NCBI GenBank assembly: GCA_016187935.1
Contig: JACPIU010000005.1
Coordinates: 11,028 to 43,027 of the forward strand
Reading direction: 5' to 3'
Length of the DNA stretch: 32,000 bases
From: Bdellovibrio sp.
Lineage (GTDB): Bacteria > Bdellovibrionota > Bacteriovoracia > Bacteriovoracales > Bacteriovoracaceae
Within the stretch, counting starts at the first letter, position 1. Each line of letters opens with the position of its first letter. A program made the translations under genes and the position numbers. The notes beneath the pieces are model-generated. The model made no database searches. It worked only from the letters and a program-made list of their open reading frames with translations, and had not been told where the DNA came from. Positions 5,947 to 31,787 of this stretch are shown piece after piece.

Positions 5947-6011
5947 TTGAGCCGAAGCGCCATCCATGTTTAAACGCCCTTGTATATTTTATAACTAACC
6001 CTGGAATAATA

Positions 6012-6761: not shown

Positions 6762-6783
6762 ATCATATCTAAATCATCCCAAT

Positions 6784-6844: not shown

Positions 6845-6866
6845 TAGCCAAGGGCAGGAGGTTTAG

Positions 6867-8418: not shown

Positions 8419-8463
8419 CGCCAGCGCCAGAACAAGAAATGTATCTCTCCTGAAATCGATTTT

Positions 8464-9837
8464 TCAACACCCTCCTAGATCTTCTATCTTTTTTAATTTG
8501 TACTGTAAGCTCCCTCGTGTGATCTGCAATCGTTTGGCCGCCTTGATTTGATTGTGCGATTCTTGCTTCATAATGTCTTTAATGATGCGAAATTCGATTT
8601 CTTCCAGAAACTGATTCAGCCCTTTACCCTCGGTTAGAATTTGAGATTGAGTTGTTGAAGAGGTAAGAGCTGGTGCGGGGGAATTTTTTGATACTTCCAA
8701 TGGCAGAAGAGTAGCGCTGACTTCTTTATTAGCTTCGCCCAGCACGATCAGCCTCTCCAAAATATTTTTCAGTTCACGAATGTTGCCAGGATAATCATAG
8801 GCCATGAGTTTGCTCTCAACTTGCGCATTCATTTTAGGATGGCGTTTAAGTTCCTGACACAAATCTTTCCAAAAAAATTCGATGAGAGCTTTCAGATCTT
8901 CTGTTCTTGCCGACAGCGGAAGAAGAGTGAAAGATAAAACATTGAGCCGAAAAAACAAATCTTCGCGGAAGGAGCCTAACTTGGACAATGAGAGAAGGTC
9001 CCGATGTGTGGCCGCAATAACTCTGGCAGTGGTATGAATACTCTTTTGTCCACCGACTCTATAAAATTCTTTTTCTTGCAAAACTCGAAGAAGTTTTGCC
9101 TGTAGCTCATAGGAGAGTTCTCCAATTTCATCCAGGAAGATCGTTCCACCTTCCGCCAGTTCGAATTTACCCTGCCTAGAATCTACCGCACCCGTAAAGG
9201 CCCCCTTTTCATGACCGAACAACTCAGAATCCATGAGTTCTTTACCAAGGGTGGCGCAATTAATCGCCACAAAAGGACCGAAGGCCCGTTTAGAAGATTC
9301 ATGAATAGATCTTGCCAGGACTTCTTTCCCCGTTCCGGTTTGGCCCAAAATGAGAATGGAGGATGGCACGTCCGCAACTTTTGCCGCAAATTCTTTAGCC
9401 GCTTTCATATTTTCACTTTGACCAAGTAAACGTGAGAGGCCCTTGCATTTTTGCTGACGTAACGAAATCTGGCGGCCCTGGGCCCTAAGTTCTTCAATGC
9501 GTTTTAGGCGGTGATCGAATTCGGTTAAGTTGAGCGGCTTGAGAATATAGTCAGAAGCCCCATTTTGAAGCGCAGACACGGCATCTTGAATGGAGGCATA
9601 GGCGGTCATAAGAATAAACGATGTTTCAGGCGAGAAGGTCTTGGCTTTCTTGATTAAATCGATTCCTAACATGCCCGGCATTTGTTGATCGGTGATCACC
9701 AAATCGATAGCGTGTTTTTCCAAGAAGGCAATACCAGCAATGGGATCATTGAATACTGTTACTTCATGCGAATCTTCCACTGCAGATTTTAGGGTTGTTC
9801 CCATGGTTGGGTCGTCATCAATAATGACTAATCGCAT
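8464..9837 (-). CDS. Sigma-54-dependent response regulator (NtrC family: REC + AAA+ + Fis-type HTH)
   Basis: REC domain with ITDQQMPGM. Walker A GQTGTGKE. The sigma-54 contact loop GAFTGA is present (EKGAFTGAV). C-terminal HTH AAKRLQITRGSLQYKLKK. Confidence 0.93.
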   Translation of the reverse strand: MRLVIIDDDPTMGTTLKSAVEDSHEVTVFNDPIAGIAFLEKHAIDLVITDQQMPGMLGIDLIKKAKTFSPETSFILMTAYASIQDAVSALQNGASDYILKPLNLTEFDHRLKRIEELRAQGRQISLRQQKCKGLSRLLGQSENMKAAKEFAAKVADVPSSILILGQTGTGKEVLARSIHESSKRAFGPFVAINCATLGKELMDSELFGHEKGAFTGAVDSRQGKFELAEGGTIFLDEIGELSYELQAKLLRVLQEKEFYRVGGQKSIHTTARVIAATHRDLLSLSKLGSFREDLFFRLNVLSFTLLPLSARTEDLKALIEFFWKDLCQELKRHPKMNAQVESKLMAYDYPGNIRELKNILERLIVLGEANKEVSATLLPLEVSKNSPAPALTSSTTQSQILTEGKGLNQFLEEIEFRIIKDIMKQESHNQIKAAKRLQITRGSLQYKLKKIEDLGGC

Positions 9838-9889
9838 TTTACTCTCGCTTAGGTTGGATATTCTTTCGATCTATTTTACACTACTTTCT

Positions 9890-10822
9890 ATGAGAAAAAT
9901 GCGCTTGTTTCTTATTTTGATTGCCGTGGGGATTTTATCAGGAATTTATTTTCTCACCCAATCTAAAAAAGACCCCGAGAATGAGGTTGCGCAGAAGCAA
10001 GACCTCTCTGCCGATGTTGCCGTTTTAAGTGCAAAAAATAATGAAGTTCAATACAAGAGAAATAATTCGTTTGAATGGCCTGATGCCATTATAGGGTTGG
10101 CACTGTCCAACTATGATTCCCTCAGAACTGGGAAAGATTCCAGTGCCTTGGTTACTTTTGACGATTCAAGTAAACTAAATATGGCAGAGGATACTCTGGT
10201 TGTGATTTTAGATCGGAAAAGGCGCGAGCGAGGTGCTCCCGATCAAATTCTTTCACTTCCAAACGGCCAGATTCATGTGGAATCGCGTGGAGATGAACGT
10301 TCCATATATTTTGAGGTAAGAACGCCAGCAGGTTGGGTAAGGCCCAAACATGGTGGGGGAGGTCTCTCCAAGGTAAAGATTCGAGGGCAGAAGCAGTTGT
10401 TGGTGGTGACCTTATTATCGGGTACGGCTGAAGTGGCCACCAAAGGTAAGACGACGGAAATGAATTCGGGAGAAACAAAGACCTTCATCGCACCAAAAGA
10501 AGTCAAATTTGAAGAGGAACTCCCCATGGGTGAGATGCAAGAAGAAAATCCCCCGATTTCGGCCATGAAGGTGAAGCCAGAGTTTGTACTGGAGTCGCCT
10601 TCTGGCGAAGAACTATCAACGGTTGATAATAGATTATTATTTAAGGGATATATGCGAGGAGATATTAAAGTCTTCTTAAATGGAAAGAAAATTATTGCAA
10701 CAGGTGATGGATCATTTAGATTCTATTACGATCTCGAAGTCGGCAAAAATATTTTGGGACTACAAATTGAAAGTGGCAACAATCTTGAGCATCGCATGCT
10801 TAAGGTATGGCGCAAACAATGA
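9890..10822 (+). CDS. Membrane-anchored FecR-domain protein
   Basis: Starts at MRKMRLFLILIAVGILSGIYF (ATG 9890); the tracked extension from 9692 lies antisense inside the regulator gene. FecR-like segment WPDAIIGLALSNYDSLRTGKDSSALVTFDDSSKLNMAEDTLVVI. Confidence 0.7.
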   Translation: MRKMRLFLILIAVGILSGIYFLTQSKKDPENEVAQKQDLSADVAVLSAKNNEVQYKRNNSFEWPDAIIGLALSNYDSLRTGKDSSALVTFDDSSKLNMAEDTLVVILDRKRRERGAPDQILSLPNGQIHVESRGDERSIYFEVRTPAGWVRPKHGGGGLSKVKIRGQKQLLVVTLLSGTAEVATKGKTTEMNSGETKTFIAPKEVKFEEELPMGEMQEENPPISAMKVKPEFVLESPSGEELSTVDNRLLFKGYMRGDIKVFLNGKKIIATGDGSFRFYYDLEVGKNILGLQIESGNNLEHRMLKVWRKQ

Positions 10823-12255
10823 AAGCCAAGCTTAGAAATCAATTCATCCTGTTGGTTGCTCTCGTCGTCAGCATCACGTTTCTTGGTACATCCTATATTG
10901 GTCTTCGCAATTTTGTAAAAAAAGAGCGCAATGATTTTCTTCTTGATGCCTCGACGTTGTCCTCTTCCACCGCCAGGGCACTCAGTGTTGGGTTGCGGGC
11001 GCAATCTTCTCTAGCTTCTTTGAAAGATATTTTGTCCATGGGGCCCTATCGTATTTTTGTTTTCAATACGGAAGGCGAGGTTTTGATTGCTAATCCACTC
11101 GGGGAATCTACTCCGGCACAGGATTTCCTGGCCACAGTGAAATCTTTAGATTTGGCAAATTTGAGCAAATTGCAGATTGCCATGACAAAAGAAATTTCCA
11201 TCCAGGGGCAGCCAAATTTTGTGGGTGTGGCTCCAGTTCCGGGCGATGCCAATCTCTATGTGGCAGTCTTTTTTCCCAAATCCACACTCTGGCTAGTGAC
11301 AAGACCAATCTTTTCAAAATTGTTGTGGCTTGGGTTAGCTCTTGCCCTCTTAACCACACTAATCGCGACGTTGTTCACGAAGAGGATTTCGCGTCCGCTT
11401 GAAAATCTTACGCGCATAACAGAGAAAATGGCCGAAGGTGAATTTGAAATAAAAATGGCGAGTGATTCACAAGATGAGGTCGGTCGACTTTCTCGTTCGT
11501 TTACTCTCATGGGCCATAAACTCAAAGAACGTGAAAATCGAATTAAAAGTATGGCCCAAGATTTGGCCCTCTCAGAAAAATTGGCCATTTTAGGTCAGTT
11601 CTCCGCCGGGGTGGCGCATGAAATAAAAAATCCGCTGGGAAATATTCTTGCCAATATTCAATTAGCGGAAAGAAAGATTGAAAAAGGTCAGGAAGGGGCG
11701 ACAACGCTTAAAACCGCAATTAATGAGGTTTATCGTGCCAATCAGATTTTGGCCGACATTCTCACTTTCGCTCGCCAAGATCGGCCTTCCATAGCGAAAA
11801 TTGAGCTAGATAAATTTCTGCACACCTTTTATGAAACTCAGAAAGTTAGACTGGAAGCACAGAATATTATGCTCTCATTGGATATTTCTAATCCAAATAT
11901 GATTGCGAGTTTTGACCCAAGACTGATCACTGAAGTTTTGGGCAATCTTCTTGATAATGCTCGAGATGCCCTGCTTGATCATCCTAAAGGAAACATGCAG
12001 ATTGTTCTTGGTATGGCGGTTGAGAATAGCACGCTCAAAATTTTTGTTAAGGATAATGGACCGGGAATTCCTGAGGAAATTAGACGCAAAGTCTTTGATC
12101 CGTTTTTTACAACTAAGCCTGGTAAGAAAGGAACAGGACTTGGTTTGGCCACCGCCTATTCAATTTTGGCCATGCATGATGGGTCACTTTCTGTTGAGTC
12201 GTCATCCTCTGATGGTGCTAATTTTATACTTAAGATTCCACAAGAAAAAAAATAA
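10807..12255 (+). CDS. Sensor histidine kinase (2 TM, periplasmic domain, HAMP, HisKA, HATPase_c)
   Basis: H-box [13 protein letters not shown]-box [10 protein letters not shown]1 DNGPGI, G2 GTGLGL, and a HAMP region after TM2. Overlaps the FecR-like gene end; an alternative ATG at 10819 forms an ATGA overlap. Confidence 0.9.
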
Positions 12256-19515: not shown

Positions 19516-20283
19516 TTATTTGTAAATGAGACAAGGACTTGGTCCTCTGCCGGAAAAAAGTCGCATTTGGATTTGATCCCCGGCCTCAAGATCAAAATGC
19601 GAGAATAAATAATTAAGATTAAATTTTACATTGTTTGTTAACGTGGCGGTTCTGTTTGAGATTTTTTCCTTCCTCTTCTTTATGGGAATTTTCGTTCCTT
19701 TGGTTCCAGTTACCATGATATCTTGCAACCCTATTCGCAATTTTTTTTGGGTTGGACCTTCATAGATCAATTGAATGTCTTTATTCTCCTGAATTAATTC
19801 ATAAGATTCGACAGTTTGTTTGGGCGATTTATCCACAATCAATTTGAAAAAAGCGGCAAGAGAAAAATTGGTTTGTAACTTATCGACATGAAAAACAATT
19901 GCTGAGGGGCCAAAAAGTTGAAATCTCCAATACCCGAAGGTGGACTTCTGTTTTGATGGAATGTAGCACTCGGGGAATTTTTCGCAGGTGGATTTGGCGT
20001 TTTTTAGTTCGACTTTTAACAATTCAAAATTGCTTGCATCGATATGCCCTGTAAATGTTCCCACCTTCTTTCCCGAGCAGTTTGAAAAACCTCCGATATT
20101 TGTTTCAAGCCGATAATCACCATTGTCGAAGACATTGAGAATAGTGTTGGCAACGACATCAATAAGATCCTGTTTGAGTATAGCTTGAAAGATGGGAGGA
20201 GATAAATCGTCTTTGGCAAAAATGCTCTCGCCTAATAAAATGCTAAAAAATAGAAGTGAAATTTTAAAATTAATCCCAGGCAT
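19516..20283 (-). CDS. Secreted hypothetical protein, downstream partner of the metalloprotease gene
   Basis: The internal start MPGINFKISLLFFSILLGESIFA (ATG 20283) gives a signal peptide and overlaps the upstream gene stop by 14 nt. Confidence 0.6.
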   Translation of the reverse strand: MPGINFKISLLFFSILLGESIFAKDDLSPPIFQAILKQDLIDVVANTILNVFDNGDYRLETNIGGFSNCSGKKVGTFTGHIDASNFELLKVELKNAKSTCEKFPECYIPSKQKSTFGYWRFQLFGPSAIVFHVDKLQTNFSLAAFFKLIVDKSPKQTVESYELIQENKDIQLIYEGPTQKKLRIGLQDIMVTGTKGTKIPIKKRKEKISNRTATLTNNVKFNLNYLFSHFDLEAGDQIQMRLFSGRGPSPCLIYK

Positions 20284-22018
20284 ATCTAATCCTATCGTGA
20301 ACTCTGCCATGGCATCGTTCAGGCCTTAAAATTCTTTCCACATGGCGAGGAAGGATTTCTTCACCACTATTCATTATACTGTTGTTGGGGCCGATCTCAT
20401 TATAGGGATAGCTCTTTTTATCGACATATTCGTCAGGGAGACCAAGACGATGCAACATTTCATGTTTTAGAATCCAGCACTCTGTGGTCGCAGTTACATT
20501 GTTAGCATCTTGGCGATCGCGCCAGTGTGTACCTGCGGCAAGAACAGCGTCCTTTTGTTTCGGTGTCAAATCTTTTTTGCAGGTTGTATTAGGAATTTCA
20601 CTTCTACCGGCAAAAATGACTTCGATGCCGTCGGGATCAGGAACATGACAGTCGGCACAGTAACAGCGGTGAACAGCAAAATCATTACCTTCTTCAAAGT
20701 TGAAATACAAATTGATCTTAGCATTTTTCAGCCATGGCAAAGAACCGGATGCTTTGGTAAAAGCTGCTTCAATATCTCCCTCAAAACTTGCTCTACAGGT
20801 CTTGAGGGTATTGTAAAACTCGGTTTTTTCATCTTGCGAAAGTTCATCCGTGTCAAATCCCAAATCAAGCGTCAAATTGATGGTATTCTTTTTTTTATTG
20901 AACTTTACTTGATAATCAAAGTCTGAACCGAAAGGTGGATCATCCATTCTTCGACCTTGCTGTCTGAATTCATTGTTCGGATCAAAGGGATGATCGGGGG
21001 CAGGATCGTCATCATCAAAGATACCATCGCAGTCAGTATCAAATTCATGGGGATCATAATAATAGCTTTGGCGGCAAAGATATATATTTGCCATCGCTCG
21101 TTGAGTTTGATTCATATCGATAATCGCTTGATCGAAAATTCCTGGAAAGTTTTTAAAAAGCTGTTCAGGGCTCATATTGCAGACATTACTTAATTGGGAA
21201 TGGATATTGGCAGTATAATCCGTTTCAATATTAATGATGGCCTGATCAACTTCCTTTTTAAAATTCGAATTTGGAGCGTTGTAAAGCGTATCATAGGCGG
21301 ATTTGATGGCCTCATGCTGGCCAACGGAATGGGCATTGGGAGTCCAGTGATCGCCCAAATGACGCTTCATAAGAGAGACCAGTTGGGTCGTGCGATTTTC
21401 AGGCCAAAATAAATGCGGCATAGCTCTATGCAAGCGATCCACATACTCGGCTTTCGTATATTCCAAATCAAGGCCACCTATGAGGCTCAAATTGTAGCCA
21501 CCATAAATTTGATCGATGATGGTTGCGCTGATTGTGTTGTATTTAAAATGGGTAGATTTTCTGATCTCTGCATGAGGGGCAGGGGGAAGCGATGTGAGAC
21601 AACTGAGATCAGGCAAAGGCGCAGGCTCCCCGGGAACATTGTCCAAATATTCGGACTTTAAAACGCTGGCGACATAATCTCTCAGATAGGAGGTCGTATT
21701 AGTTTGGGAAAAAAAATTGACAAGAAATAGAAGTGGCGGTTGATCCAAAACGGTTAAGTGCTGGCATATACTGCTTAAATTTTTCGAGAGAATGGAACGA
21801 GTACAGGTTTCCCTTACCGCTTCATTCGCCTCGAAAGCGTCGGACGCAATTCTGCCCATTCCCGAGTGGCTGGTACCGCCATCACTCGCAGGGGTACTAA
21901 AAAGGTTATCAGTTGCAGGCGAGGGCACATGGGCGAAAGTTGTCGGCCCAATTCCCGTTGATAAAAAAAAGGCAAACAGACTAGCGCGAAATGATAGATT
22001 TAAAATCATTGAAAGCAT
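20270..22018 (-). CDS. Large secreted protein with a C-terminal snapalysin-type (HExxHxxGxxD) zinc metalloprotease module
   Basis: HEMLHRLGLPD is encoded at 20432-20464, followed by a Met-turn-like SIMNSG. The mid-protein has an Asp-rich Ca-binding-like DTDCDGIFDDDDPAPD. The signal-peptide start MLSMILNLSFRASLFAFFLS at 22018 is preferred over the tracked 22189. Confidence 0.7.
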   Translation of the reverse strand: MLSMILNLSFRASLFAFFLSTGIGPTTFAHVPSPATDNLFSTPASDGGTSHSGMGRIASDAFEANEAVRETCTRSILSKNLSSICQHLTVLDQPPLLFLVNFFSQTNTTSYLRDYVASVLKSEYLDNVPGEPAPLPDLSCLTSLPPAPHAEIRKSTHFKYNTISATIIDQIYGGYNLSLIGGLDLEYTKAEYVDRLHRAMPHLFWPENRTTQLVSLMKRHLGDHWTPNAHSVGQHEAIKSAYDTLYNAPNSNFKKEVDQAIINIETDYTANIHSQLSNVCNMSPEQLFKNFPGIFDQAIIDMNQTQRAMANIYLCRQSYYYDPHEFDTDCDGIFDDDDPAPDHPFDPNNEFRQQGRRMDDPPFGSDFDYQVKFNKKKNTINLTLDLGFDTDELSQDEKTEFYNTLKTCRASFEGDIEAAFTKASGSLPWLKNAKINLYFNFEEGNDFAVHRCYCADCHVPDPDGIEVIFAGRSEIPNTTCKKDLTPKQKDAVLAAGTHWRDRQDANNVTATTECWILKHEMLHRLGLPDEYVDKKSYPYNEIGPNNSIMNSGEEILPRHVERILRPERCHGRVHDRIRYAWD

Positions 22019-22286
22019 AATGTGACACACCCTTTTCGTCGTGAAAAAATAACTTCGTGCAGATTTGCTCCAATCAGTCATGCTTCTATTATGGCGTAAA
22101 AAAATCAAGAAGTGTACTGTCGATTTTGCCGAGAAACTCAGAAGAGCAGACAGCACACCCCGCCGATGAAGTTTATTCCGACTTCTCAATTATTGCTTCC
22201 AGAATCATCAGTGAGTTATTAAAAATTCATCTTGCTTTTTTAATTCATTTTTCCTAGCGAGAATGGGGGCGAAGCTTTGCAAAATT

Positions 22287-23138
22287 CTATTTTTCTTCCT
22301 TTTTATAAAATATTAGAGTTAACGCAGCGATAGTCATGATGATAGTTGCTGTCTTTTCTACTTGAAAAGGTTTCCCGACAATGAGCCAATCAATTAAAAA
22401 AATCCAAACGATAAACATCTTTGACGAGATGTTCGCCAATGAAGCGGAAAGTCCGCAATAAACTTTCACCAAAAAGACTTGTCCCAGATAGGCACTGAGC
22501 GCTATCCCCAAAAGATACATCCACTCCAAGAAAGAGGGGATTGCAGGAGTATACGACAGGAAAGGGAGGGAAACGAAAAACAAAAGCGCATGCAATGAAA
22601 AAATCAAATTATTAGTGCTGGAAACTCTAGAAGCCATTTTGAGAAAAAGAAATGAGATGGCCATAAAGACTGACCCAACAATTCCGATGACAATTCCCTT
22701 GGTTTCTAAGGAAGAATTAAAACCTTTAAAGTTAACAAACGTTTCGATCAGGACAATAAGAAATATTCCGATATACTGGCGCGCACTTAATCGCTCATCC
22801 ATATAGACTCTCGAAAGGACCAGAAGAAAAACCGGAGCAAGAAGGGTGATAAGGGCCGCATTCAAGGTGTCGAGATATTTCAAGGAAAAGTAATAACAGC
22901 TCAAGGAGATAGAGCCAAAACAGGCCCTATACCAACTATTTTTAGAATCAGACGAAAAGTATGACCTTATTTCGCGGAAATAAAGGATCGTTAATGCGGT
23001 CAAAGTTAAAAGTGAGCGACTCAGAAGAATTGAGCCTATTGAAAGACTTTGGCTGGCATATCTGACCATTACCGCCATACTTCCTAGGAATAGCGCCGCA
23101 AACGTCGCGCTTATGAGAGGATGCATATTAACCCGCAT
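22287..23138 (-). CDS. EamA/DMT superfamily transporter (10 TM)
   Basis: About 285 aa, entirely hydrophobic helices arranged as two EamA-like halves. Candidate starts are TTG 23144, ATG 23138 and ATG 23126; all overlap or abut the cyclase stop at 23128-23130. Confidence 0.8.
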   Translation of the reverse strand: MRVNMHPLISATFAALFLGSMAVMVRYASQSLSIGSILLSRSLLTLTALTILYFREIRSYFSSDSKNSWYRACFGSISLSCYYFSLKYLDTLNAALITLLAPVFLLVLSRVYMDERLSARQYIGIFLIVLIETFVNFKGFNSSLETKGIVIGIVGSVFMAISFLFLKMASRVSSTNNLIFSLHALLFFVSLPFLSYTPAIPSFLEWMYLLGIALSAYLGQVFLVKVYCGLSASLANISSKMFIVWIFLIDWLIVGKPFQVEKTATIIMTIAALTLIFYKKEEK

Positions 23139-25263
23139 ATTCAAAGATTGAAGCCCTGATATAATCTTTTTTCACGAATAAGTTGATCTCTTTCTTTTTC
23201 TTTAGACTCAAATTCAAAAAACGTTCGGCAAGGGAGTTCGAAACCATAATCTTTCCCTTCGGGCAGACTTGCAAAAGACGGGACGATATATTCACGGATG
23301 CTCCCGAACTCCGAATCGAATATTGGTCACAAACCAAATTGGCTTCCCCCACATTCAAACTTATTGACATGGATATTGGAGGATAGCCTTTTTTACTGCA
23401 GAGGACTGCGCCATCGGTATTGATAAACTTGACGATTTCCTCCACCACCAAGGCCGATCTCTGGGCAATATTCTCAAAGTTGTTGTTCAATTTGTCGGTC
23501 ACTATCAGGTAGATCTCATCACCCTCAAAACGCTCGGGAATAGCATACTTCAAGACGGACTTGATAAGGGCAGGAAAATAGACCTTGTCGACAAATTTCA
23601 CATATTCGTTATCTTGCGCTCCATATTTATGGTTGTTATAGCTGTAATCAATAATATCGATAAAAACTGATCCCAATATCAATTTGTGTTCACCGATGCC
23701 AAAGCTCGATTTTATTTTTTCTATAGAATAGGATTCCTTCAAGGCATACTCGATCAGCTTTTCAGAAAAGACACCCAAGTTTGACATAATGGATTTGATC
23801 GAGGTTTCGCTCTCCAAGATATGAAAGTTTGACTTGTATTTATTGTCTGACAGATTGATCCAGGCTACGCTGCCTATGGGGATGATGCAATAATATGAAT
23901 TATCATCGCCTTTTTGCAAAGTGATGTTTCCCTGTTTTGAACTTTCCACCATCTTGCCGCCTTTTCCGGTTAAAAAGTCTATTTGAGAATCAATAGAAGT
24001 ATCCTTCTCGTAACCAAACTCGTATATTCTCCTTGCCTTGTTCCCTAACTGTGTATTAAGTCCAAAGCAATAGTCGTCCACATAGATAGAAAGCCGTGAA
24101 AACCCGCTGCGCTCGAGCAAAATTGTACCCACTTCTACCAGCGACTCTTTTATATTCTTGGAATTATAGATCGAGTCCAAGATGCGAGTCATTGCACTGA
24201 TCTTTAATCCCACCTTCATCTCGGATTTATTGGTGAAATAGAACACGCATAGAGCGATCACGGCGATCATCGTCTGTGCGGTGTAAACCCCTAGGCTTGA
24301 GAACATTGAGACTGTGTCTATCAATTGGGAAATGCCCCAAGTAAGAGCGATAACCTGAAGAGTGGAATAGTTCTTCCTGATAAAACGCTCGTTAAAAATG
24401 TACCACGCACCAAAGGCGGTCGCGAGGACAAAGAACGGATAAAAATAGACGTAGCAATTGACAAGATTCGATGGATCGAAAACCTGGATGAAGGCGGTCA
24501 AGGCGAGCATAGCTCCATGCATGGAAATTGAAGTTAGGGAGAACTTGGAATATGTCCCGATAAATGTGACAAAAGCGAGTGAATATAAAATGCGAAGGTA
24601 TATATGGAGAGTCGTTGTAAAAGTTCCACTCCAAAAAAGTCTCATAAAATGGGCAAGCGAAAGGCAATAGACAAATGAAACCACAGCGAAGAAAAGAATG
24701 GCAAAACGTTCCTTATCCGAACTTGAAAGGCTATTGAAAACATGTCTCAGCGCCTTATATGTTCTGGCATCGGTAAAAATAGAAAGAATTAGAAGAAGTG
24801 AACAAATGGGTCCCAGGTAGATAAGTATAAAATCCCTCAGCATATGAAGCCAATTACCTGAGCCAATGTCCAATATCACGGGTGAATAGGAGAAACTGAA
24901 AGAAAATCCCGATTGTGGCAGACATTGGATGGAAATTAACTTGTCTCCGTCATTTTTTCGGAAATGAATTTTAGGCGATATTTCCTGCTTGATACCATCA
25001 GAAACGAGTACTGTCTGATAGAGACTGGAAGCGTCCTTCATAACCGAGCAAGCTCCTCTCGGGCGCCCTAACGATACAACGTAAGTTCCTTTAGGAAGTT
25101 TGGATATATCGGCTTGGTAATGACATTGGTCGATCTTTTGGAATAGCTTTTTACTTCCAATCACTTTTAGGGAGATGCTGTCCAAATAAACGGTGGCGAC
25201 GGAAAGCAGGAGAAGAAGGCCCGTGGAAATGAAGATTTTTAGCCAGAATTCACGCTTATTCAT
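23128..25263 (-). CDS. 7TM receptor (7TMR-DISM-like, with an extracytoplasmic domain) - GAF-like - class III nucleotidyl cyclase
   Basis: Signal anchor, an extracytoplasmic segment of about 115 aa, 7 predicted TM helices (aa 145-345), a GAF-like region (aa 360-510), and cyclase motifs VFIDIIDYS, ERFEGDEIYLIV, ISLNVGEA and GASVNISSRL...KGKIMVS. Confidence 0.75.
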   Translation of the reverse strand: MNKREFWLKIFISTGLLLLLSVATVYLDSISLKVIGSKKLFQKIDQCHYQADISKLPKGTYVVSLGRPRGACSVMKDASSLYQTVLVSDGIKQEISPKIHFRKNDGDKLISIQCLPQSGFSFSFSYSPVILDIGSGNWLHMLRDFILIYLGPICSLLLILSIFTDARTYKALRHVFNSLSSSDKERFAILFFAVVSFVYCLSLAHFMRLFWSGTFTTTLHIYLRILYSLAFVTFIGTYSKFSLTSISMHGAMLALTAFIQVFDPSNLVNCYVYFYPFFVLATAFGAWYIFNERFIRKNYSTLQVIALTWGISQLIDTVSMFSSLGVYTAQTMIAVIALCVFYFTNKSEMKVGLKISAMTRILDSIYNSKNIKESLVEVGTILLERSGFSRLSIYVDDYCFGLNTQLGNKARRIYEFGYEKDTSIDSQIDFLTGKGGKMVESSKQGNITLQKGDDNSYYCIIPIGSVAWINLSDNKYKSNFHILESETSIKSIMSNLGVFSEKLIEYALKESYSIEKIKSSFGIGEHKLILGSVFIDIIDYSYNNHKYGAQDNEYVKFVDKVYFPALIKSVLKYAIPERFEGDEIYLIVTDKLNNNFENIAQRSALVVEEIVKFINTDGAVLCSKKGYPPISMSISLNVGEANLVCDQYSIRSSGASVNISSRLLQVCPKGKIMVSNSLAERFLNLSLKKKKEINLFVKKDYIRASIFEYAG

Positions 25264-26776
25264 ATTTTAATTTTGTTACCGCTATGGAATGCTCCAAACT
25301 TGAGATCATGTCCTGCATGCCATTTTTTTTGAAAGTCACAAGACGATCAGTTGAAGTTTTGCATTCTTTTTTACTTATCTTGGAATCGAGTGGATAAGTC
25401 ACAAGAAATATTCCTTCACCTACCCCGTGTTTCTTCAAAGTTTCCTGCATGTATGCTTGCACGTCTTCATTTGTTAACTCTGGATCGAAGACCGAGCAAT
25501 AATTCAAGGAGTTACTCAAATTAATGAATGAACTGGAAAAAACAAGCATCGCCCCGGGATATCTGAGTGCCGTTCGCAATTCTTTGCCTATCTGATATTG
25601 GGACGACTCAATTGGCTCCTCTTTTGTCCTCAATCCGGATTGCACAACATGCTCACGATGGATATGGATGGGTATGATCGCCCCTTCCTGTTTGGAGTAA
25701 CTTACATATTTGGTATAAATACGTTCGCACCACCGGCTTTTGGAAGAATAAAGAACCATGGCCGCAGGGGTGTTGTCTTTATGTGTGGGGCTCCCCATGA
25801 TATATTCACAGCGCCACTTGTACAGATCGCCCGAGTTGTCGAGCTGCCTGTTATTTTTTATGGCACAATAGCTGTGCTTAATCCACATGAACTCCCCGTC
25901 CTGCACAAAGCTCTTTGTAAGACTTGAGCTTCCAACAAGATTCTCCCCCTCGCAGACGGCAAGAATGTCATACGTGTTCCCGCCCTGCTTGTAGACGTTA
26001 TCCCACACATCGAAGATGTCACCACTCATATTTTTTATCTCTTCGATGTTCATGTACTGTCCGAGATAGCCGCTTTCAATGAAAAGTTTGAAGATTTTAT
26101 CATTCTCAAAATTGCTCCTACGTGACAATAATGGGTACTTTAGGGACATAAAAAGTTCGAATGAAAGACGATATTCCTCGTCGGAAATCGCATTAAAACT
26201 GTAGATACTCTTTTTCTCTTTTCTATTAAGCAGGGTGAGTGCAATCCTGCCACCAGGGGTGATAATTTTTGAAATGTCCCTTGAATCATTGAATGCAATG
26301 CTATCGACATTCACACTAAAGCTCATGGCCGTCGATTTCTGCCCATCGGCTAACATGACGGGTAATTCTTGTTCAACCAGGGTTCTAGGCTGTTTTCGGA
26401 ATTTAAGCACGGTTATTTTATTGGGCAATGCCAATTCAAAATACTTGTCATTTTCGAAGCACTCTTCAGAGATTATGGAGGCTTCAAGCTCAAAGCAGAC
26501 GTTAAAGACTTCAAACCTTGCGCGTAAGATTTCGTTTCCGGGACCGAATGTCTTCGATGTTTTTACATGGAAGGAGTCATAATCCGCCAAGTCTTCATCA
26601 ACAACGAACTCGGCCTTGTTGTATTCTTCTCCATGGTAAGCGATGCACTTGGTAAGGTCTTTCCATTGGAAGTAAAGTGCAAGGATTCGCTTAACGTCTT
26701 TTTCGCTGTCGAAGGTATAGAGATTCTCGGTTTGTAAAAGCTGTCCCAAAGAATAGGATTCGGATTCTGTCACCAT
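25256..26776 (-). CDS. Hypothetical cytoplasmic protein (506 aa), possibly with a degenerate PilZ-like segment
   Basis: No signal peptide. Coupled on both sides: TGA-T-ATG upstream and an ATGAATAA overlap downstream. RKQPR (aa 127-131), then NVDSIA 25 residues later, loosely matches RxxxR...(D/N)xSxxG. Confidence 0.7.
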   Translation of the reverse strand: MVTESESYSLGQLLQTENLYTFDSEKDVKRILALYFQWKDLTKCIAYHGEEYNKAEFVVDEDLADYDSFHVKTSKTFGPGNEILRARFEVFNVCFELEASIISEECFENDKYFELALPNKITVLKFRKQPRTLVEQELPVMLADGQKSTAMSFSVNVDSIAFNDSRDISKIITPGGRIALTLLNRKEKKSIYSFNAISDEEYRLSFELFMSLKYPLLSRRSNFENDKIFKLFIESGYLGQYMNIEEIKNMSGDIFDVWDNVYKQGGNTYDILAVCEGENLVGSSSLTKSFVQDGEFMWIKHSYCAIKNNRQLDNSGDLYKWRCEYIMGSPTHKDNTPAAMVLYSSKSRWCERIYTKYVSYSKQEGAIIPIHIHREHVVQSGLRTKEEPIESSQYQIGKELRTALRYPGAMLVFSSSFINLSNSLNYCSVFDPELTNEDVQAYMQETLKKHGVGEGIFLVTYPLDSKISKKECKTSTDRLVTFKKNGMQDMISSLEHSIAVTKLKYE

Positions 26777-26777
26777 A

Positions 26778-27701
26778 TCAAGCTACTTTAAGCATTGCCC
26801 TATCGTTGTAAGCGATCTGCATTATTTCATCAAAATTTTTGTACAGTATTTTCTTCACCCCCCCGGTGCCTGGAGGTGACTTTTTGACAAGATGTTCTTT
26901 GAAGGCATTCAATGTTGCTGGTTCAGTCAAAACGTTGAGTCCTTTTAGAAACATGAAGACTCTTTTCGCAAGAATTACTTTCTTGTCATCAAGATATTCG
27001 AATCCGGAGACCTGCTCCATCATCAGGGAAGATTCAAACTGCTGTAAAAAATGATATTCCTTCAGCTCTTCCCTTTGTTTTAAGTCCATACAGCCGCTGT
27101 AAATTGCCGCTTCAAGCTTGATTAAATCAATCCAAGACAGACTTAAGGAAGGTGCAAGCAGGTTAAGCATCCGATCTTGTTTAAGAAAAGACTGTGTTTG
27201 GCCATTTATGGCGATCATGTTTTGAAGAATAGAGGTCAATATTCCGGGAAGCAAGGCCTCCTTCGTCTTTTCGACAAAGGATTGCACTAAAGAAGGAAAG
27301 ATTTCGTTAAGTTTGTCTCTATCAAGTAGGCTTCCTTTGTCCAAATACTCCAGGTTTCGTCCATCATTTTTTAGCATCCGATAGGTCGAAAGACTTTCAG
27401 TGCCATTATGGGTAAGGACATAAAATGCAGGCCAGCCAAGCGACTCATAATAATTTTTTAAATTTGCAAATGCATTTTGAAAGTCAATTTCTGGAATCTC
27501 TTCATCGAAAATGAAAAATCCCACAGTCTTTTTTCCCTTGCAAAAATCCAAAGCGTCCGAATAACTGTCAAAAGAATCGATTTGGGTTTCGAGAAAAGGA
27601 AACTCTTCAGCAATTGCGACTTCGATTTGCATTGGGGTGCGGTCGGTGCTTCCAAGGATGACTATGTTCACATCTTGAAGTATATTTTTATTTAATTTCA
27701 T
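26778..27701 (-). CDS. Atypical receiver (REC-like) domain protein with an uncharacterised alpha-helical C-terminal domain
   Basis: The N-terminal ~120 aa shows the REC pattern: VNIVILGSTD, FFIFDEEIPEID (acceptor-Asp position), YVLTHNG (Thr) and EYLDKG (Lys). The usual DD acidic pair is incomplete. The C-terminal ~180 aa was not recognised. Confidence 0.6.
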   Translation of the reverse strand: MKLNKNILQDVNIVILGSTDRTPMQIEVAIAEEFPFLETQIDSFDSYSDALDFCKGKKTVGFFIFDEEIPEIDFQNAFANLKNYYESLGWPAFYVLTHNGTESLSTYRMLKNDGRNLEYLDKGSLLDRDKLNEIFPSLVQSFVEKTKEALLPGILTSILQNMIAINGQTQSFLKQDRMLNLLAPSLSLSWIDLIKLEAAIYSGCMDLKQREELKEYHFLQQFESSLMMEQVSGFEYLDDKKVILAKRVFMFLKGLNVLTEPATLNAFKEHLVKKSPPGTGGVKKILYKNFDEIMQIAYNDRAMLKVA

Positions 27702-27813
27702 AAATGATTCCTTTTGTCTTTTATCGGTATTAACTGCAGAAAAATAAAGGGCTTCGACCCTTATTAACTGATCTTATTAATCGGTTTTGGCAGGCTCAAT
27801 CCGGAAGGTATTT

Positions 27814-28683
27814 TCAAAGCCTTTTGTGGAAAAAAACCAAATCTTTATAGCTGCTGTCGATCAGGCAGTTACGCTTTAGTAGCCCGCTATCACTAAAACC
27901 GAGCGCTCTAAACAAATTGGTTGCTGAATCGGAATCTGAACGGGTCAGGGCATAGGCAGATTGGATTCCTGTTTTTTTGATAAAGGTTTCCAAATTCGTA
28001 ATTACTTTCCTATTAAGCCCCTTCCCCCGAAACCCTTCTTTCGTGCAACATTCGGCGATCTCGGCAGTAGAAGACTTGTTGTCAATATGGGCCACAGCGG
28101 TCGCTGCCATGACCCCTTCCACAAAGGCCACAGAGCAGACAGTGGATTCGCAGAGAAGTTTGAGAAATGGAGAATAAAAAATTGGGAATGGGTAACAAGT
28201 AAAAGAGTTCTTGAAAAGTTCACTCAGTCCCTCATAGTCCCTCTCTTCACCCTGAGAAAAGACTTTATATTCGGCTTTAAAATTTCCCTTTTCGGTAATC
28301 TTTCTTGGTGATATCTGCATAGGTTCGAATTTTCTCTTTTCAAAAATTACCCGTGAATAGATCGAATATTCCTGGAATCTTCCAAAATTGTTGAGCCTAG
28401 CTTCACACTCGATCATGGGAATTGACTGGGTAATTTCAGGATTAAGTCCAACATCGGTGTATAGTATCAGCTTGGAAAAACCAGAAAAAGAAAACTCTTT
28501 TTGCATGTAAGCAATGACTTCGGGTTGATCGGCAGGTTTTAGACCGGTCAAATGTACTTTCAGACGGTCATTGTAAAAATCTTCTTCAATCAAATACCTC
28601 TGAGAACCTATCAACCCTTCAAAAACTTCGAAGTAATCGATCCCATTATAGGAGACTGTTTTGATTTTTTTTAAATTTGGCAT
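27814..28683 (-). CDS. GNAT N-acetyltransferase of the AblB/YodP (putative beta-lysine N-acetyltransferase) type
   Basis: C-terminal GNAT motif A (FRGKGLNRKVITNLE) and the tail ALGFSDSGLLKRNCL. An N-terminal extra domain carries EDFYNDRLKV, which resembles my recollection of YodP/AblB proteins. The ~290-aa size fits that family. Confidence 0.65.
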   Translation of the reverse strand: MPNLKKIKTVSYNGIDYFEVFEGLIGSQRYLIEEDFYNDRLKVHLTGLKPADQPEVIAYMQKEFSFSGFSKLILYTDVGLNPEITQSIPMIECEARLNNFGRFQEYSIYSRVIFEKRKFEPMQISPRKITEKGNFKAEYKVFSQGEERDYEGLSELFKNSFTCYPFPIFYSPFLKLLCESTVCSVAFVEGVMAATAVAHIDNKSSTAEIAECCTKEGFRGKGLNRKVITNLETFIKKTGIQSAYALTRSDSDSATNLFRALGFSDSGLLKRNCLIDSSYKDLVFFHKRL

Positions 28684-28778: not shown

Positions 28779-29180
28779 GCATTCTTGGAAATTAATGAAA
28801 ATTCTGCTCAAGATTATGATATTGAGACGGGGCTGACCCACATGGTGTGCGGTGGTATGATTCCATCACAGGTAGATTTATTAGTCCTGACCCGATCGGA
28901 TTTTCTGGTCGGGATACGAACTTGTATAGATACACATTTGATGAGCCACTTGGGCGTGTGGATTCAGATGGTCTGGACTCTTACCGAACAAACATGGGAC
29001 ATGGTTTCTTGGTTATAGATGATCCAAAGAGAAGCGGCGGTGTTTGTGTATTTACATTTGGCCCTCGTGATCCCAGTGTAGTCACCTATGCGAAAACTTT
29101 GGCCCTTCAACCTGTTGCTGCAAGTGCTGCTGTAGATTTCTTTCCTAAGGGATCAGACTTAACATTCTTAGGCATTGAGG
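28779..29180 (+). pseudogene. Orphan Rhs/YD-repeat core-end fragment with a C-terminal tip; 5'-truncated, frameshifted and 3'-truncated
   Basis: Frame A reads ...SAQDYDIETGLTHM and frame B continues VRWYDSITGRFISPDPIGFSGRDTNLYRYTFDEPLGRVDSDGL (the Rhs PxxxxD(P/S)xGL end). The 1-nt frame change lies between 28836 and 28847. Frame A opens only after a TAA at 28776. The tip is cut off by intron sequence near 29175. Confidence 0.7.
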
Positions 29181-30383
29181 GTCCCATTCTCTCGCATTCC
29201 TCAATCATACAAACCGCAACCAGTGCGCAGAACTTATATTCCGAAGACCAATGGAAAGCTTCGTCCGCTGGGGATTCCCTCGGTTGAAGATAAAATCGTT
29301 CAAAAAGGAATGGCGCGAATACTTGAGGCCATTTACGAGAATGAGTTTCTAGATTTTTCTTATGGATTCCGCCCACACAGAAGCTGTCATCAGGCATTTA
29401 AACAATTAGATAAAGTGATTATGACAATGCCGATCAACCACGTTATTGATGCCGACATCAAAGGATTCTTCGATAACGTAAATCATGACTGGCTGAAGCG
29501 GTTTCTAGAGGAAAGAATCAGTGATCCAAATTTTCTTCGCTTGGTTGGCCGCTTTCTGAAGAACGGGTACATGGAAGAAGGAGTGATTCATAATTCTGAG
29601 CAAGGGACACCCCAGGGCGGAATTATTTCTCCTATTCTTGCGAATGTGTACCTTCACTACGTCCTTGATTTGTGGATTGAGCGAGCGGTGAAACCAAAAT
29701 GCAGAGGTGCTGTCGAGATTGTACGGTACTGTGATGATTTTGTGATCTGCGTGCAATACAAGGACGAGGCCGAAAAGATTCTGCTTGCACTCCGAGAACG
29801 TTTGAAAAAGTTCAATCTGGATTTGGCAGAAGAAAAGACAAGAATACTTGAGTTTGGTAGATTTGCTAAGCGAAATGCAAAGGCAAAAAATCTCCGGCCA
29901 GCAACATTCAACTTTCTTGGATTTACACACTTCATAGACAAAGGCAGAAATGGATATTTCAAACTAGGGCGTAAGACTGATCGAAAGAAGTTCTCGGCAA
30001 AAGTGATTGAGATGAACAAGTGGCTAAAAAGTGTGAGAAATCTTTTTCAACTGAAAGAGATTTGGAAAATACTTAAGGCCAAACTTCGAGGTCACTATCA
30101 ATATTATGGAGTCAGTGGTAACTATCGGAGTATCAAAAACTTTTATGGCCTGACGCTCAAGCTTGTCCTTAAGTGGGCAAACAGGCGAAGTCAGAAAAAG
30201 AGTTTTGACTGGACAACGTTCCTAGAATACCTACGAAGGTATGAACTGCCGAAGCCGCGAATCTGCCATAATTTCTATGATCTAAAAGCAATATTCGTGA
30301 ATGCTATCGAAGAGCCGTATGTGGGAAAACTACAAGTACGGTTCTGTGAGGGGCATGGTTCTTCTCACAATAGGAAACTATAG
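29175..30383 (+). CDS. Group II intron reverse transcriptase/maturase, N-terminally truncated (no En domain)
   Basis: RT motifs RPLGIPSVEDKIVQ, FRPHRSCHQA and the active site YCDDFVICV. Maturase (X) motif LRGHYQYYGVSGN. About 75 aa shorter at the N-terminus than my recollection of LtrA. The ORF reads through domain V (EEPYVGKLQVRFCEG). Confidence 0.85.
   Translation: MRVPFSRIPQSYKPQPVRRTYIPKTNGKLRPLGIPSVEDKIVQKGMARILEAIYENEFLDFSYGFRPHRSCHQAFKQLDKVIMTMPINHVIDADIKGFFDNVNHDWLKRFLEERISDPNFLRLVGRFLKNGYMEEGVIHNSEQGTPQGGIISPILANVYLHYVLDLWIERAVKPKCRGAVEIVRYCDDFVICVQYKDEAEKILLALRERLKKFNLDLAEEKTRILEFGRFAKRNAKAKNLRPATFNFLGFTHFIDKGRNGYFKLGRKTDRKKFSAKVIEMNKWLKSVRNLFQLKEIWKILKAKLRGHYQYYGVSGNYRSIKNFYGLTLKLVLKWANRRSQKKSFDWTTFLEYLRRYELPKPRICHNFYDLKAIFVNAIEEPYVGKLQVRFCEGHGSSHNRKL
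30312..30344 (+). ncRNA. Group II intron domain V
   Basis: GAGCCGTAT-GTGG-GAAAA-CTAC-AA-GTACGGTTC: a lower 9-bp helix with the AGC triad, a 2-nt bulge and an upper helix with an A-rich loop. It closely matches the canonical DV GAGCCGUAU...GUACGGUUC. A further GAAA-capped helix (30355-30392) may be DVI. Confidence 0.8.
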
Positions 30384-30392
30384 GAGAACCAT

Positions 30393-31028
30393 ATGTCTAC
30401 TCGACAAAAACTAATAAACCCCACCCAAACTCACGAAAGTCCAGTCATTGATGAGCCGATTGCAATGTTGAGAGATGTGAATGGAAATGGGAGATTTGAA
30501 GGGTCGGAAGTATTTACCTACACGAAAGACCACCTTGGCTCGGTCAAAGATTTAACTGATGCCAACGCGGAATTAAAACAACGCTACGGGTATTCAGCTT
30601 ACGGCAGCACCAAACTTGAAAAAGATGATTCGCATTCATCGAATAAATTTATCGAAAATCCTTATGCCTATACGGCAAGAGAGTGGGAACAGGAAACGGG
30701 ATGCTATTACTATCGTGCACGCTGGTATTGTCCGATGATGGAGAAATTTATTTCTGAGGACCCTATTGGCTTTTACAGCGGCGACTTTAGTAAATATAGA
30801 TATACGGGGAATTCTCCATTTATAAGAAATGATCCATTCGGATTGCAGAGTATGTCATGTATAAATAAAGCAAATGAAGAATATTTGGAAGAAGTAAAAA
30901 GAGATGTTGAGACCGTAAAAAGGGCAAAAGAAGAAGCGGAACGAATATTAAAGGAAAAGCAAAGGATTGAATTCTATAAGCAACTTGACGAAGCACTTAA
31001 AGAATCATTTGCGAGAGAAGAGCTATAA
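30393..31028 (+). CDS. Orphan Rhs C-terminal cassette (core end + PxxxxDPxGL + 60-aa helical tip)
   Basis: DHLGSVKDLTD, YGYSAYG, ETGCYYYRARWYCPMMEKFISEDPIGF and SPFIRNDPFGL (aa 141-151) are Rhs core-end motifs. Only about 150 aa of core is present. The tip (30846-31025) is charged and coiled-coil-like. Confidence 0.75.
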   Translation: MSTRQKLINPTQTHESPVIDEPIAMLRDVNGNGRFEGSEVFTYTKDHLGSVKDLTDANAELKQRYGYSAYGSTKLEKDDSHSSNKFIENPYAYTAREWEQETGCYYYRARWYCPMMEKFISEDPIGFYSGDFSKYRYTGNSPFIRNDPFGLQSMSCINKANEEYLEEVKRDVETVKRAKEEAERILKEKQRIEFYKQLDEALKESFAREEL

Positions 31029-31457: not shown

Positions 31458-31787
31458 ATGGAAGTACACGTAAAAAAACTTCAAAAATATGTTACTGACA
31501 ATGGGCGCTGTCCATTTGATGAGTGGATTGAGTCATTAAGTAATAGGCGCGTACAAGCGATTGTGGCGACTCGGCTCAACCGGGTTATTCAAGGGAACTA
31601 TGGACACTGTCGAAAACTTGAGGGTGGCATCCTGGAACTTAAAATTGACTTTGGAGCAGGCCTTCGCATTTACTTTGCAGAAGAGGGGAACACGATTGTT
31701 GTTCTTTTATGCGGTGGCGATAAATCAACCCAAAGTAAAGATATTTTAAAGGCCCAAGAATATTGGGCCGAGTATAATAAGGAGTAA
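31458..31787 (+). CDS. Type II toxin, RelE/ParE superfamily (addiction module killer protein type, HigB-like)
   Basis: PFDEWIESL...RLNRVIQGNYGHCRKLEGGILELKIDFGAGLRIYFAEEGNTIVVLLCGGDKSTQSKDI matches the pattern I recall for the addiction-module killer family (COG3657/TIGR02683). Confidence 0.85.
   Translation: MEVHVKKLQKYVTDNGRCPFDEWIESLSNRRVQAIVATRLNRVIQGNYGHCRKLEGGILELKIDFGAGLRIYFAEEGNTIVVLLCGGDKSTQSKDILKAQEYWAEYNKE

Follow-up and report, generated by a model that had tools for sequence, protein, structure and literature searches.

Background

Fusion of a nucleotide sensor to an acyltransferase of the GNAT fold is a known way of placing acyl transfer under second-messenger control. PixB of Myxococcus xanthus (MXAN_2604) has the architecture PilZ-PilZ-GNAT, binds cyclic di-GMP (c-di-GMP) without the Ser of the second PilZ motif and uses its acetyltransferase domain as output (PMC8316039), and in MtPat and MsPat (Rv0998 and MSMEG_5458), which act downstream of class III adenylate cyclases, a fused GNAT is under the allosteric control of a cAMP-binding domain (PMC8556138). 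Here we consider a locus in a 32,000-nucleotide (nt) stretch of the genome of a Bdellovibrio sp. of the Bacteriovoracaceae (assembly GCA_016187935.1, contig JACPIU010000005.1, positions 11,028 to 43,027; this whole stretch is called the window below). Four minus-strand genes, running from 27701 down to 22287 of the window, form a candidate operon encoding three proteins that we call p307, p506 and p711, of which p506 is a predicted PilZ-type sensor with a fused acyltransferase and p711 a putative membrane receptor of the nucleotidyl-cyclase type, followed by an EamA/DMT-family permease. The nucleotide-gated GNAT principle is thus known; the protein families and the operon architecture are new, and in the literature searched we found neither these families, nor the PilZN-PilZ-tandem-GNAT architecture, nor an operon joining it to a cyclase-type receptor and a DMT permease.

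The closest described systems each share a part of this arrangement. As in PixB, compared here by its description, a PilZ-type sensor stands N-terminal to the GNAT part of p506, the RxxxR motif is kept and the second PilZ motif is degenerate; p506 differs in having a PilZN and one PilZ domain (the layout of YcgR) instead of two PilZ domains, in an acyltransferase region that is a tandem GNAT matching no Pfam GNAT model, and in belonging to a fixed operon whose other members are p307, a cyclase-type receptor and, in most cases, EamA. The N-terminal 215 amino acids (aa) of p506 superpose on the c-di-GMP-type receptors YcgR, MrkH, MotI and PP4397, with the RRxxxR loop aligned, but these are stand-alone adaptors or transcription factors, whereas p506 adds a predicted enzyme domain of 290 aa and has a degenerate (D/N)xSxxG motif. 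E. coli ycgR is a FliA-dependent class 3 flagellar gene, and a FliA-type promoter motif likewise precedes the genes studied here. MtPat offers the same logic as that proposed for p506, a cyclic-nucleotide sensor gating a fused GNAT, but its sensor is a CAP-type domain for cyclic mononucleotides and not a PilZ domain, its GNAT is single and canonical, and its operon has no dedicated cyclase, partner or permease.

The C-terminus of p711 matches class III cyclases by profile (CyaC of Spirulina, 1wc0; CyaB, 3r5g; Rv1625c, 1yk9/4p2f) and keeps their Asp pair, their Arg and mostly their Asn, but its substrate-specifying residues are noncanonical and unconserved, and the window sequence alone falls below the Pfam threshold. 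Cyclase outputs occur among the 7TMR-DISM receptors, which p711 resembles in architecture only (an anchor, an extracytoplasmic domain, about seven transmembrane segments and a cytoplasmic output); it matches neither of their Pfam models, PF07695 and PF07696. Finally, Pycsar and CBASS systems also place a nucleotide-cyclase-type gene beside membrane proteins. The present module, which has no match in PADLOC and no effector domain, lies in ordinary gene contexts in other genomes and has a cyclase of membrane-receptor type, is not a member of either.

Results

Organisation of the locus

A reading of the DNA made from the letters alone (the sequence-only reading) had described five adjacent minus-strand genes, and all five open reading frames (ORFs) were found at the coordinates it gave. 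The three central genes carry the locus tags HYV97_01285 to HYV97_01295, and their products, p307, p506 and p711, have no significant match in Pfam or NCBIfam, so that only the two outer genes, for an AblB-like GNAT and for the EamA permease, are recognised. The features of the four genes that we retain as a unit are as follows.

26778-27701, minus strand: p307, first gene of the candidate operon; an N-terminal alpha/beta region, then a helical C-terminal half
25256-26776, minus strand: p506; predicted PilZN (about aa 1-115), PilZ (about aa 116-215) and tandem GNAT-fold acyltransferase (about aa 216-506)
26132-26431, minus strand: predicted PilZ beta-barrel of p506, with a conserved RxxxR loop and a degenerate second motif
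25259-26131, minus strand: predicted tandem GNAT-fold region of p506, from the secondary structure of the model, Foldseek and the conservation table
23128-25263, minus strand: p711, putative membrane receptor, from family alignments, hydropathy and its position directly downstream of p506
23719-24228, minus strand: cytoplasmic domain of p711 (aa 346-515), lying after the membrane region and before the cyclase domain
23131-23718, minus strand: class III nucleotidyl-cyclase homology domain of p711, aa 516-711, from the family profile
22287-23144, minus strand: EamA/DMT-family permease, with its start codon at 23144, 23138 or 23126

The junctions are those that had been described. Read on the minus strand, p307 and p506 meet at TGA-T-ATG, p506 and p711 overlap by 8 nt (ATGAATAA), and p711 is followed by the permease gene either at TAA-T-ATG or with an overlapping ATG or TTG start, at 23126-23144.

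Conservation of the gene order in other genomes

Word-indexed homologue searches with p506, p711 and p307 returned the query alone, a result that we attribute to limited sensitivity and not to true orphan status, because an exhaustive HMMER scan recovered 91 cluster representatives of p506. These are mostly full length (500-550 aa) and 25-30% identical to p506, and the family is therefore real but deeply divergent. Loci were taken from the contigs encoding homologues and from scans of JGI metagenomes and GTDB genomes (a profile scan of genome contigs with our alignment A1 gave no match, and the tighter alignment A5 gave matches), and synteny was called by clustering all ORFs together with tblastn searches using several family members.

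The order p307-p506-p711 was seen again in about 25 loci from metagenomes and metagenome-assembled genomes (MAGs), belonging to Bdellovibrionota wherever a taxon is named. The named source genomes are from Bacteriovoracaceae (three), Bdellovibrionales, Oligoflexia and unclassified "Proteobacteria" MAGs, with no cultured isolate among them, and as far as sampled the operon is restricted to Bdellovibrionota. In all loci that have upstream sequence, the gene immediately upstream of the p506 homologue is a p307 homologue. A p711 homologue comes immediately after p506 in all informative loci, with the one exception of L007 (552-3101), where no p711-type gene intervenes and EamA is the next gene after the p506 homologue. 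Locus L004, with only about 390 nt of downstream sequence available, has no p711 match there. An EamA gene is adjacent in 13 of the 16 evaluable lineages, mostly overlapping the p711 stop codon; L019/L020 and L024 have it upstream in divergent orientation, and L011, L012 and L028 lack it. From the locus without p711 and the three without EamA, it follows that p307 and p506 are the invariant core. Junctions in the other loci are overlaps or gaps of at most 1 nt (gene tables), and because this order recurs with such junctions at only 20-30% identity to the window proteins, the coupling is far beyond chance. Co-occurrence across genomes, which the sequence-only reading had proposed as a check on its cluster, was thus found for p307, p506 and p711 (all informative loci but one) and for EamA (most loci), and was not found for the GNAT.

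Some loci carry further genes beside the module. In one sub-lineage, a conserved 465-aa protein abuts or overlaps p307 on its upstream side, in L013 (7627-9024), L014 (7621-9018), L017 (7589-8983) and L027 (5580-6947); it has no Pfam match and may be a fifth, lineage-specific member of the module, and in L013 a FliA-like motif, TTAAT-N17-CCGATGA, stands ahead of its gene. In L021 a 121-aa protein with a cNMP_binding domain is encoded divergently, immediately upstream of the module (5685-6050, minus strand), and L010 has a 130-aa ORF at the matching position (8589-8981, minus strand). The short contig MWWH01009199.1 (1450 nt; L016/L029) encodes a fragment like the p711 C-terminus and then a 319-aa ORF corresponding to the GNAT half of p506 only, an arrangement that could be a rearranged locus or an assembly chimera. 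Two short p506-like proteins, P0059 and P0081, were considered as stand-alone GNAT halves and rejected, being a contig-end fragment and the product of an oddly arranged 1.4-kb contig.

The sensor and acyltransferase protein p506

The sequence-only reading had called the 506-aa protein possibly PilZ-like, and this was borne out and extended. An AlphaFold2 model built from a 56-sequence family alignment (mean predicted local distance difference test, pLDDT, 92; predicted template modelling score, pTM, 0.91) predicts in p506 a PilZN-PilZ module like that of YcgR and MrkH, joined to an acyltransferase of tandem GNAT fold. Its N-terminal half matched MrkH, YcgR, PP4397 and MotI in a Foldseek search of the PDB (E=3e-9 to 1e-6), with further matches to VCA0042, PlzA and the YcgR-N domain, and the N-terminal 215 aa reached a TM-score of up to 0.64, normalised to the target, against PilZN-PilZ receptors. 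The family profile independently matched MrkH in the PDB (1.9e-4) with the RRxxxR motif aligned; in p506 the RxxxR loop is R127...R131, of which R131 is invariant and R127 is kept in 53 of the 56 sequences. Some family members also match Pfam models, namely DUF1577 (four members), PilZ-like and PilZNR, and DUF1577 in YcgR homologues of Leptospira corresponds to PilZN, an inserted GAF-like domain (GAZ) and PilZ (PMC11800159).

The C-terminal half matched tandem-GNAT proteins by Foldseek (3n7z at 1.6e-7, MAB_4324 at 9e-6, and Eis/Eis2, with values ranging to 1e-3), and further N-myristoyltransferases (NMT) and the single GNATs 3d8p and 2vxk; the order of its secondary-structure elements agrees with the GNAT fold. 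Conserved residues in this half are W298, H301-Q-L-C304, L318-Y-x-W321-R322, S347-R-W-x-E351-R352, R401, N419, R478, H496 and K504, and the loop between beta-4 and alpha-3 reads HQLCAxKxPxxLxxTGxLY.

The membrane protein p711 and its cyclase-type domain

The p711 family was studied with alignments of eight (A2) and 12 (A4) members, a domain-only profile (A7) and a further profile for the region preceding the cyclase-type domain (A6). From its N-terminus, p711 has a hydrophobic anchor, then an extracytoplasmic region (about 110 aa), six to seven hydrophobic segments and, on the cytoplasmic side, a domain of about 170 aa ahead of the C-terminal domain; the seven-transmembrane topology suggested earlier is consistent with hydropathy only (the anchor and the six to seven segments). 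The extracytoplasmic region has the motif GxYxxSxGRPRGxC and two invariant cysteines, C72 and C114. For the cytoplasmic domain at aa 346-515, the earlier assignment as GAF could not be verified, as neither single sequences nor profile A6 found a match in Pfam or the PDB; this domain is GAF-like only in its sequence pattern read by eye, and a single-sequence AlphaFold model of the cytoplasmic part of p711 (pLDDT 35) was not used.

Searched against the PDB, the domain profile A7 matched CyaC (1wc0) at E=7.7e-8, and 23 of the 24 matches with E<=1 were class III cyclases; the full-length profile matched the same structure at E=1.7e-5, and the cytidylate cyclase 8jsf was among the weak matches (E=0.05-0.3). 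Two of eight family members matched Pfam Guanylate_cyc (E<=1, best 8e-4). The earlier call of a cyclase thus stands for the family profile and not for the window protein on its own, which has no significant Pfam match. Both metal-binding aspartates, D536 and D582, are invariant in the 12 sequences and align with the metal-binding Asp residues of CyaC, the transition-state arginine R662 is invariant as well, and the asparagine N658 is present in the window and in eight of the 12 members. We conclude that p711 carries a divergent class III cyclase domain, whose catalytic machinery has probably been kept.

By eye, the RGDEI/EGDEI motif of this domain resembles GGDEF, the two folds are related, and a diguanylate cyclase beside a PilZ protein would be a textbook arrangement, so that one might take the domain for a divergent GGDEF-type diguanylate cyclase (motif xGDE[IL]) making c-di-GMP locally for the PilZ domain of p506. 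We regard this as extremely improbable, since no GGDEF protein appeared among the PDB matches of the p711 profiles with E<=1, all but one of which are class III cyclases, despite the many GGDEF structures in the PDB, and since the spacing D-x-x-[DG]-[YF]-[ST] and the block G-x-x-V-N-x-A-K-R-L are class III hallmarks.

Beside the module in L019 lies a second cyclase/PilZ/acyltransferase set (2284-8056, plus strand, and 8067-8813, minus strand), with an EamA gene between the two clusters. Its products are a 715-aa membrane protein that is Pfam-positive for Guanylate_cyc, a PilZ protein of 118 aa and an acyltransferase of the PlsB/GPAT type (1089 aa) that carries a PilZ domain. The 715-aa cyclase (2284-4431) was considered as a paralogue of p711 and set aside, as it has no detectable relationship to it. 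With this set the theme recurs, which suggests that acyl transfer gated by PilZ domains and linked to class III cyclases is a common feature of these bacteria.

A probable FliA-type promoter upstream of p307

The gap between the GNAT gene and p307 is 112 nt, as had been noted, and contains, in the direction of transcription, a hairpin and a promoter element.

27814-28683, minus strand: AblB-like GNAT, adjacent gene outside the conserved module
27737-27762, minus strand: terminator-like hairpin AAGGGTCGAAGCCCTT (27762-27747), then the T-tract TATTTTT, 3' of the GNAT gene
27721-27727, minus strand: FliA (sigma-28)-type -10 element CCGATAA, 20 nt upstream of the p307 ATG

In B. bacteriovorus the FliA consensus TTAAG-N16-CCGATA heads 92 of 140 attack-phase promoters (PMC3627812). 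Taken in the window alone, the CCGATAA heptamer is no commoner than expected by chance. Among 17 non-redundant loci, five have an exact CCGATA at -26 to -63 of p307 (background rate per locus 1.7%; binomial P=8e-6), and the fuller pattern T[CA]A[AG][AG]-N14-17-CCGAT[AT][AG] occurs 13 times on both strands of 372 kb, nine of these occurrences lying 22-57 nt upstream of p307 on the coding strand. Sites of the form TCA[AG][AG]-N15/16-CCGATAA are found at L003 5417-5444, L008 2426-2452, L010 8960-8987, L015 944-971 and L024 7012-7038 (plus strand). These motifs suggest that the four genes probably have their own FliA-type promoter and belong to the attack-phase programme. Rfam searches of the window and of 20 loci found no riboswitch or other element ahead of the operon.

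The hairpin has a weak 6-bp stem, and such sites are not above shuffled expectation in the region; we take it as a probable transcription-unit boundary because of its intergenic position, and the GNAT gene is probably a separate transcription unit.

The first protein, the permease and the adjacent GNAT

For p307 the earlier suggestion of an atypical receiver domain could not be verified. An alignment of 12 sequences (A3) has E27, P35, E38, S43, Y47, A50, G61, R177 and W190 invariant, and alternating strand-like and helix-like segments in the N-terminal region precede the helical C-terminal half. The resemblance to a receiver is by eye only: an E or D is found at the presumed acceptor position in 10 of the 12, with no acidic pair (DD) after the first strand, Pfam, NCBIfam and PDB profile searches found no match, and hhalign gave a probability below 1% against both the receiver of an NtrC-type activator encoded elsewhere in the window and CheY (the latter as an approximate sequence). 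Further receiver domains were sought in the fetched loci and none was found. Strict linkage to p506 is the sole firm fact on p307.

The permease call is secure (Pfam PF00892 at 7.9e-20, two repeats; the TIGR00950 match is weak), and EamA is a frequent, not universal, fourth gene of the module. In L025 (11612-13204) the p711 homologue is followed by two tandem EamA-type genes. Downstream of EamA in the window, on the minus strand, lie a 639-aa protein (20270-22189) with a weak C-terminal match to M6-family metalloproteases (TIGR03296, 8.5e-5) and an HExxH motif, and a 264-aa protein (19516-20310) without a significant family match; neither gene is conserved beside the module elsewhere.

The GNAT upstream is likewise correctly named (Acetyltransf_1 at 1.9e-10), but its score of 112 bits against TIGR03827 (AblB) is far below the 205-bit equivalog cutoff, and no ablA (lysine 2,3-aminomutase) was found among the window ORFs scanned. 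The sequence-only reading had counted it into a five-gene cluster; on such a view all five genes would cooperate in producing and exporting an acetylated amine, for example an N-acetyl-beta-lysine-type solute. In favour of this, the GNAT gene shares the strand and ends 112 nt before p307, derivatives of amino acids are handled by EamA-family exporters (the weak TIGR00950 match), and in L001, a contig from another sample, the GNAT, p307 and p506 occur together, all 100% identical to the window proteins. In no other lineage, however, is a GNAT homologue found beside the module, and in the window the terminator-like hairpin and the FliA -10 box separate it from p307. As the GNAT is never co-located in other lineages, the five-gene system and AblB-type chemistry drop out, leaving a four-gene unit; we give the five-gene proposal very little credence.

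Surrounding genes and the question of a defence function

As had been pointed out, the cluster adjoins a mobile and toxin-rich island, in which we found a pair of Rhs-associated core fragments, the reverse transcriptase of a group II intron and a RelE/ParE toxin. On the plus strand at 28847-31028, a group II intron (reverse transcriptase ORF 29175-30383; Rfam Intron_gpII 30310-30405) lies between Rhs-core ORFs at 28847-29287 and 30393-31028, and may have inserted into or between Rhs C-terminal cassettes; the RelE/ParE toxin gene follows the second Rhs-core ORF at 31458-31787.

It was from this neighbourhood that a defence or conflict function had been suggested, and a Pycsar- or CBASS-type system that uses a cyclase against phages or other bacteria and lies beside a toxin-rich island would also accord with the presence of the cytidylate cyclase among the weak profile matches of p711. 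The Rhs, intron and toxin-antitoxin neighbourhood is, however, peculiar to the window genome. PADLOC returned no match for seven proteins at E<=0.01, and the neighbours of the module in other genomes are ordinary (FtsH-like, methyltransferase, MFS, COX15, PALP, Lon-domain and histidine kinase genes), without island features. Deep divergence with a fixed gene order within one phylum argues for vertical inheritance. The cyclase-type protein is moreover a membrane receptor with an extracytoplasmic sensor domain, nuclease, TIR and pore-forming effector domains are all absent from the module, and the FliA-type promoter points to a developmental programme. The suggestion could not be upheld, and a defence role now seems to us barely credible.

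About 10 kb from the module, at 8464-12255, the window also encodes an NtrC-type sigma-54 activator (receiver, AAA+ and helix-turn-helix domains; 8464-9837, minus strand), a FecR-domain protein (9692-10822) and a HAMP histidine kinase (10807-12255); there is no evidence of a link between these genes and the module.

Discussion

Proposed mechanism

Taken together, the genes found form an uncharacterised, translationally coupled signalling and transport cluster around a membrane protein of the nucleotidyl-cyclase type, much as the sequence-only reading had supposed, and no characterised pathway accounting for them was found. We tentatively propose that the genes from 27701 down to 22287 are one four-gene operon and that it encodes an attack-phase, second-messenger-gated acyltransferase with its own sensor cyclase and permease, a joint proposal that we hold with slightly less than even confidence.

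In this proposal p711 would be an inner-membrane receptor whose extracytoplasmic domain, presumably disulfide-bonded, senses an envelope or external cue and controls the C-terminal class III cyclase-type domain; this domain probably makes a nucleotide second messenger, because the metal-binding Asp pair, the Arg and the Asn are kept. The output enzyme would be p506, in which a YcgR-like PilZN-PilZ nucleotide sensor is thought to gate the fused tandem-GNAT acyltransferase, with either c-di-GMP or the product of p711 as ligand. The protein p307, presumably produced in stoichiometric amounts, might serve as an adaptor, a regulator or a substrate of p506, and the EamA permease would carry a small-molecule acceptor or the acylated product across the inner membrane. 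In several lineages transcription of the operon would start from a FliA-type promoter, the type that Bdellovibrio uses in the attack phase.

The idea of a cyclic-mononucleotide-controlled synthesis and export of a small molecule, one of the two put forward earlier, therefore survives in modified form, the acyltransferase now lying within p506, fused to a PilZ-type sensor, and not in a separate gene. To our knowledge the only established ligand class of PilZ domains is c-di-GMP, not a cyclic mononucleotide. In a more particular scheme, the cyclase domain of p711 would make a noncanonical nucleotide; the degenerate PilZ of p506 would sense this nucleotide instead of c-di-GMP, and acylation of an EamA-exported metabolite would thereby be turned on in the attack phase. 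We regard this scheme as a long shot.

Evidence against the proposal and competing explanations

A number of our findings weigh against the proposed mechanism. Those on the cyclase domain come first. Alone, the window domain scores 13 bits against a 21.9-bit cutoff in Pfam (PF00211 class), so that membership of the class III cyclases holds at family level only. Four of 12 family members lack the Asn. The canonical base-specifying pairs were sought (Lys with Asp/Thr for ATP, Glu with Cys/Ser for GTP), and the corresponding positions are noncanonical and unconserved, being R578 and R651 in the window, with the first varying among P, V, H, F, D and R. From these three observations, cyclase activity is uncertain. 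The same observations would suit a p711 whose cyclase-type domain is catalytically dead or regulatory and which acts as a receptor or scaffold, recruiting or allosterically controlling p506 and p307 with no dedicated nucleotide; so would the restriction of Guanylate_cyc matches to so few members and the existence of a locus, L007, without p711 altogether. Yet both metal-binding Asp residues and the transition-state Arg are invariant at only 20-30% identity, which is typical of retained catalysis and not of decay, and we consider a catalytically inactive p711 quite unlikely.

In p506, the second PilZ motif, (D/N)xSxxG, is degenerate throughout the family (consensus [DNE]-[IL]-[SG]-x-x-[SG], none of whose positions reaches 75% conservation), and the window copy, SVNVDS, is more divergent than the family; c-di-GMP binding stays compatible with this, because PixB binds c-di-GMP with a similar defect in its second motif. 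On the acyltransferase side, none of the 56 family members matches a Pfam GNAT model and the canonical acyl-CoA motif Q/RxxGxG/A was not recognised in p506, from which it follows that the acyl donor is uncertain.

Another alternative concerns the acyl acceptor. Linkage to EamA in 13 of 16 lineages suggests a metabolite as acyl acceptor, while a protein acceptor would be as in PixB or Eis. In the second case p506 could be a PixB- or YcgR-like protein acetyltransferase that tunes motility or predation by reading cellular c-di-GMP from GGDEF enzymes encoded elsewhere, its target being p307 or a flagellar or chemosensory component, with p711 as a separate cAMP or cGMP input and EamA as an accessory. 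The logic of PixB is alike, and its acetyltransferase domain controls reversals and development (PMC8316039); the best structural matches of the sensor half are the flagellar-brake-type YcgR, MotI and MrkH; the FliA-type promoter assigns the operon to a regulon of motility and the attack phase; among the tandem-GNAT matches, Eis is an enzyme that acetylates proteins; and EamA is missing in three of the 16 lineages. The frequent adjacency of EamA, mostly overlapping the p711 stop, is on the other hand hard to explain without a small molecule, no GGDEF or EAL gene was found near the module in any locus, and the substrate class of a GNAT is not readable from sequence. We judge this alternative unlikely, while taking it seriously.

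The remaining points against our second-messenger-gated acyltransferase concern the locus as a whole. In the window only the -10 half of the promoter is present, the -35 being weak (TTATT or TTTAT, three of five positions), and exact CCGATA is found in no more than the five lineages of 17. No fold can be assigned to p307. The parts are separable, L007 having p307, p506 and EamA without p711, and L011, L012 and L028 lacking EamA, and every homologue derives from MAGs or metagenomes.

Conclusions

Three of the four proteins belong to families that rise above threshold in no Pfam or NCBIfam model. If the proposed mechanism is true, p506 would represent a second, architecturally distinct class of PilZ-acyltransferase effector beside PixB, and the operon would be a compact system coding for sensor, messenger, effector enzyme and transporter at one locus; both the effector chemistry and any crosstalk between cyclic mononucleotides and c-di-GMP could become directly testable. 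Should a noncanonical nucleotide indeed be the messenger, the locus would provide a new messenger-receptor pairing, the product of a class III cyclase sensed by a PilZ domain, and a new signal-controlled secreted molecule in predation. How bacterial predators sense prey is poorly understood, and the FliA-type promoter makes a role of the module in the prey-seeking attack phase plausible.

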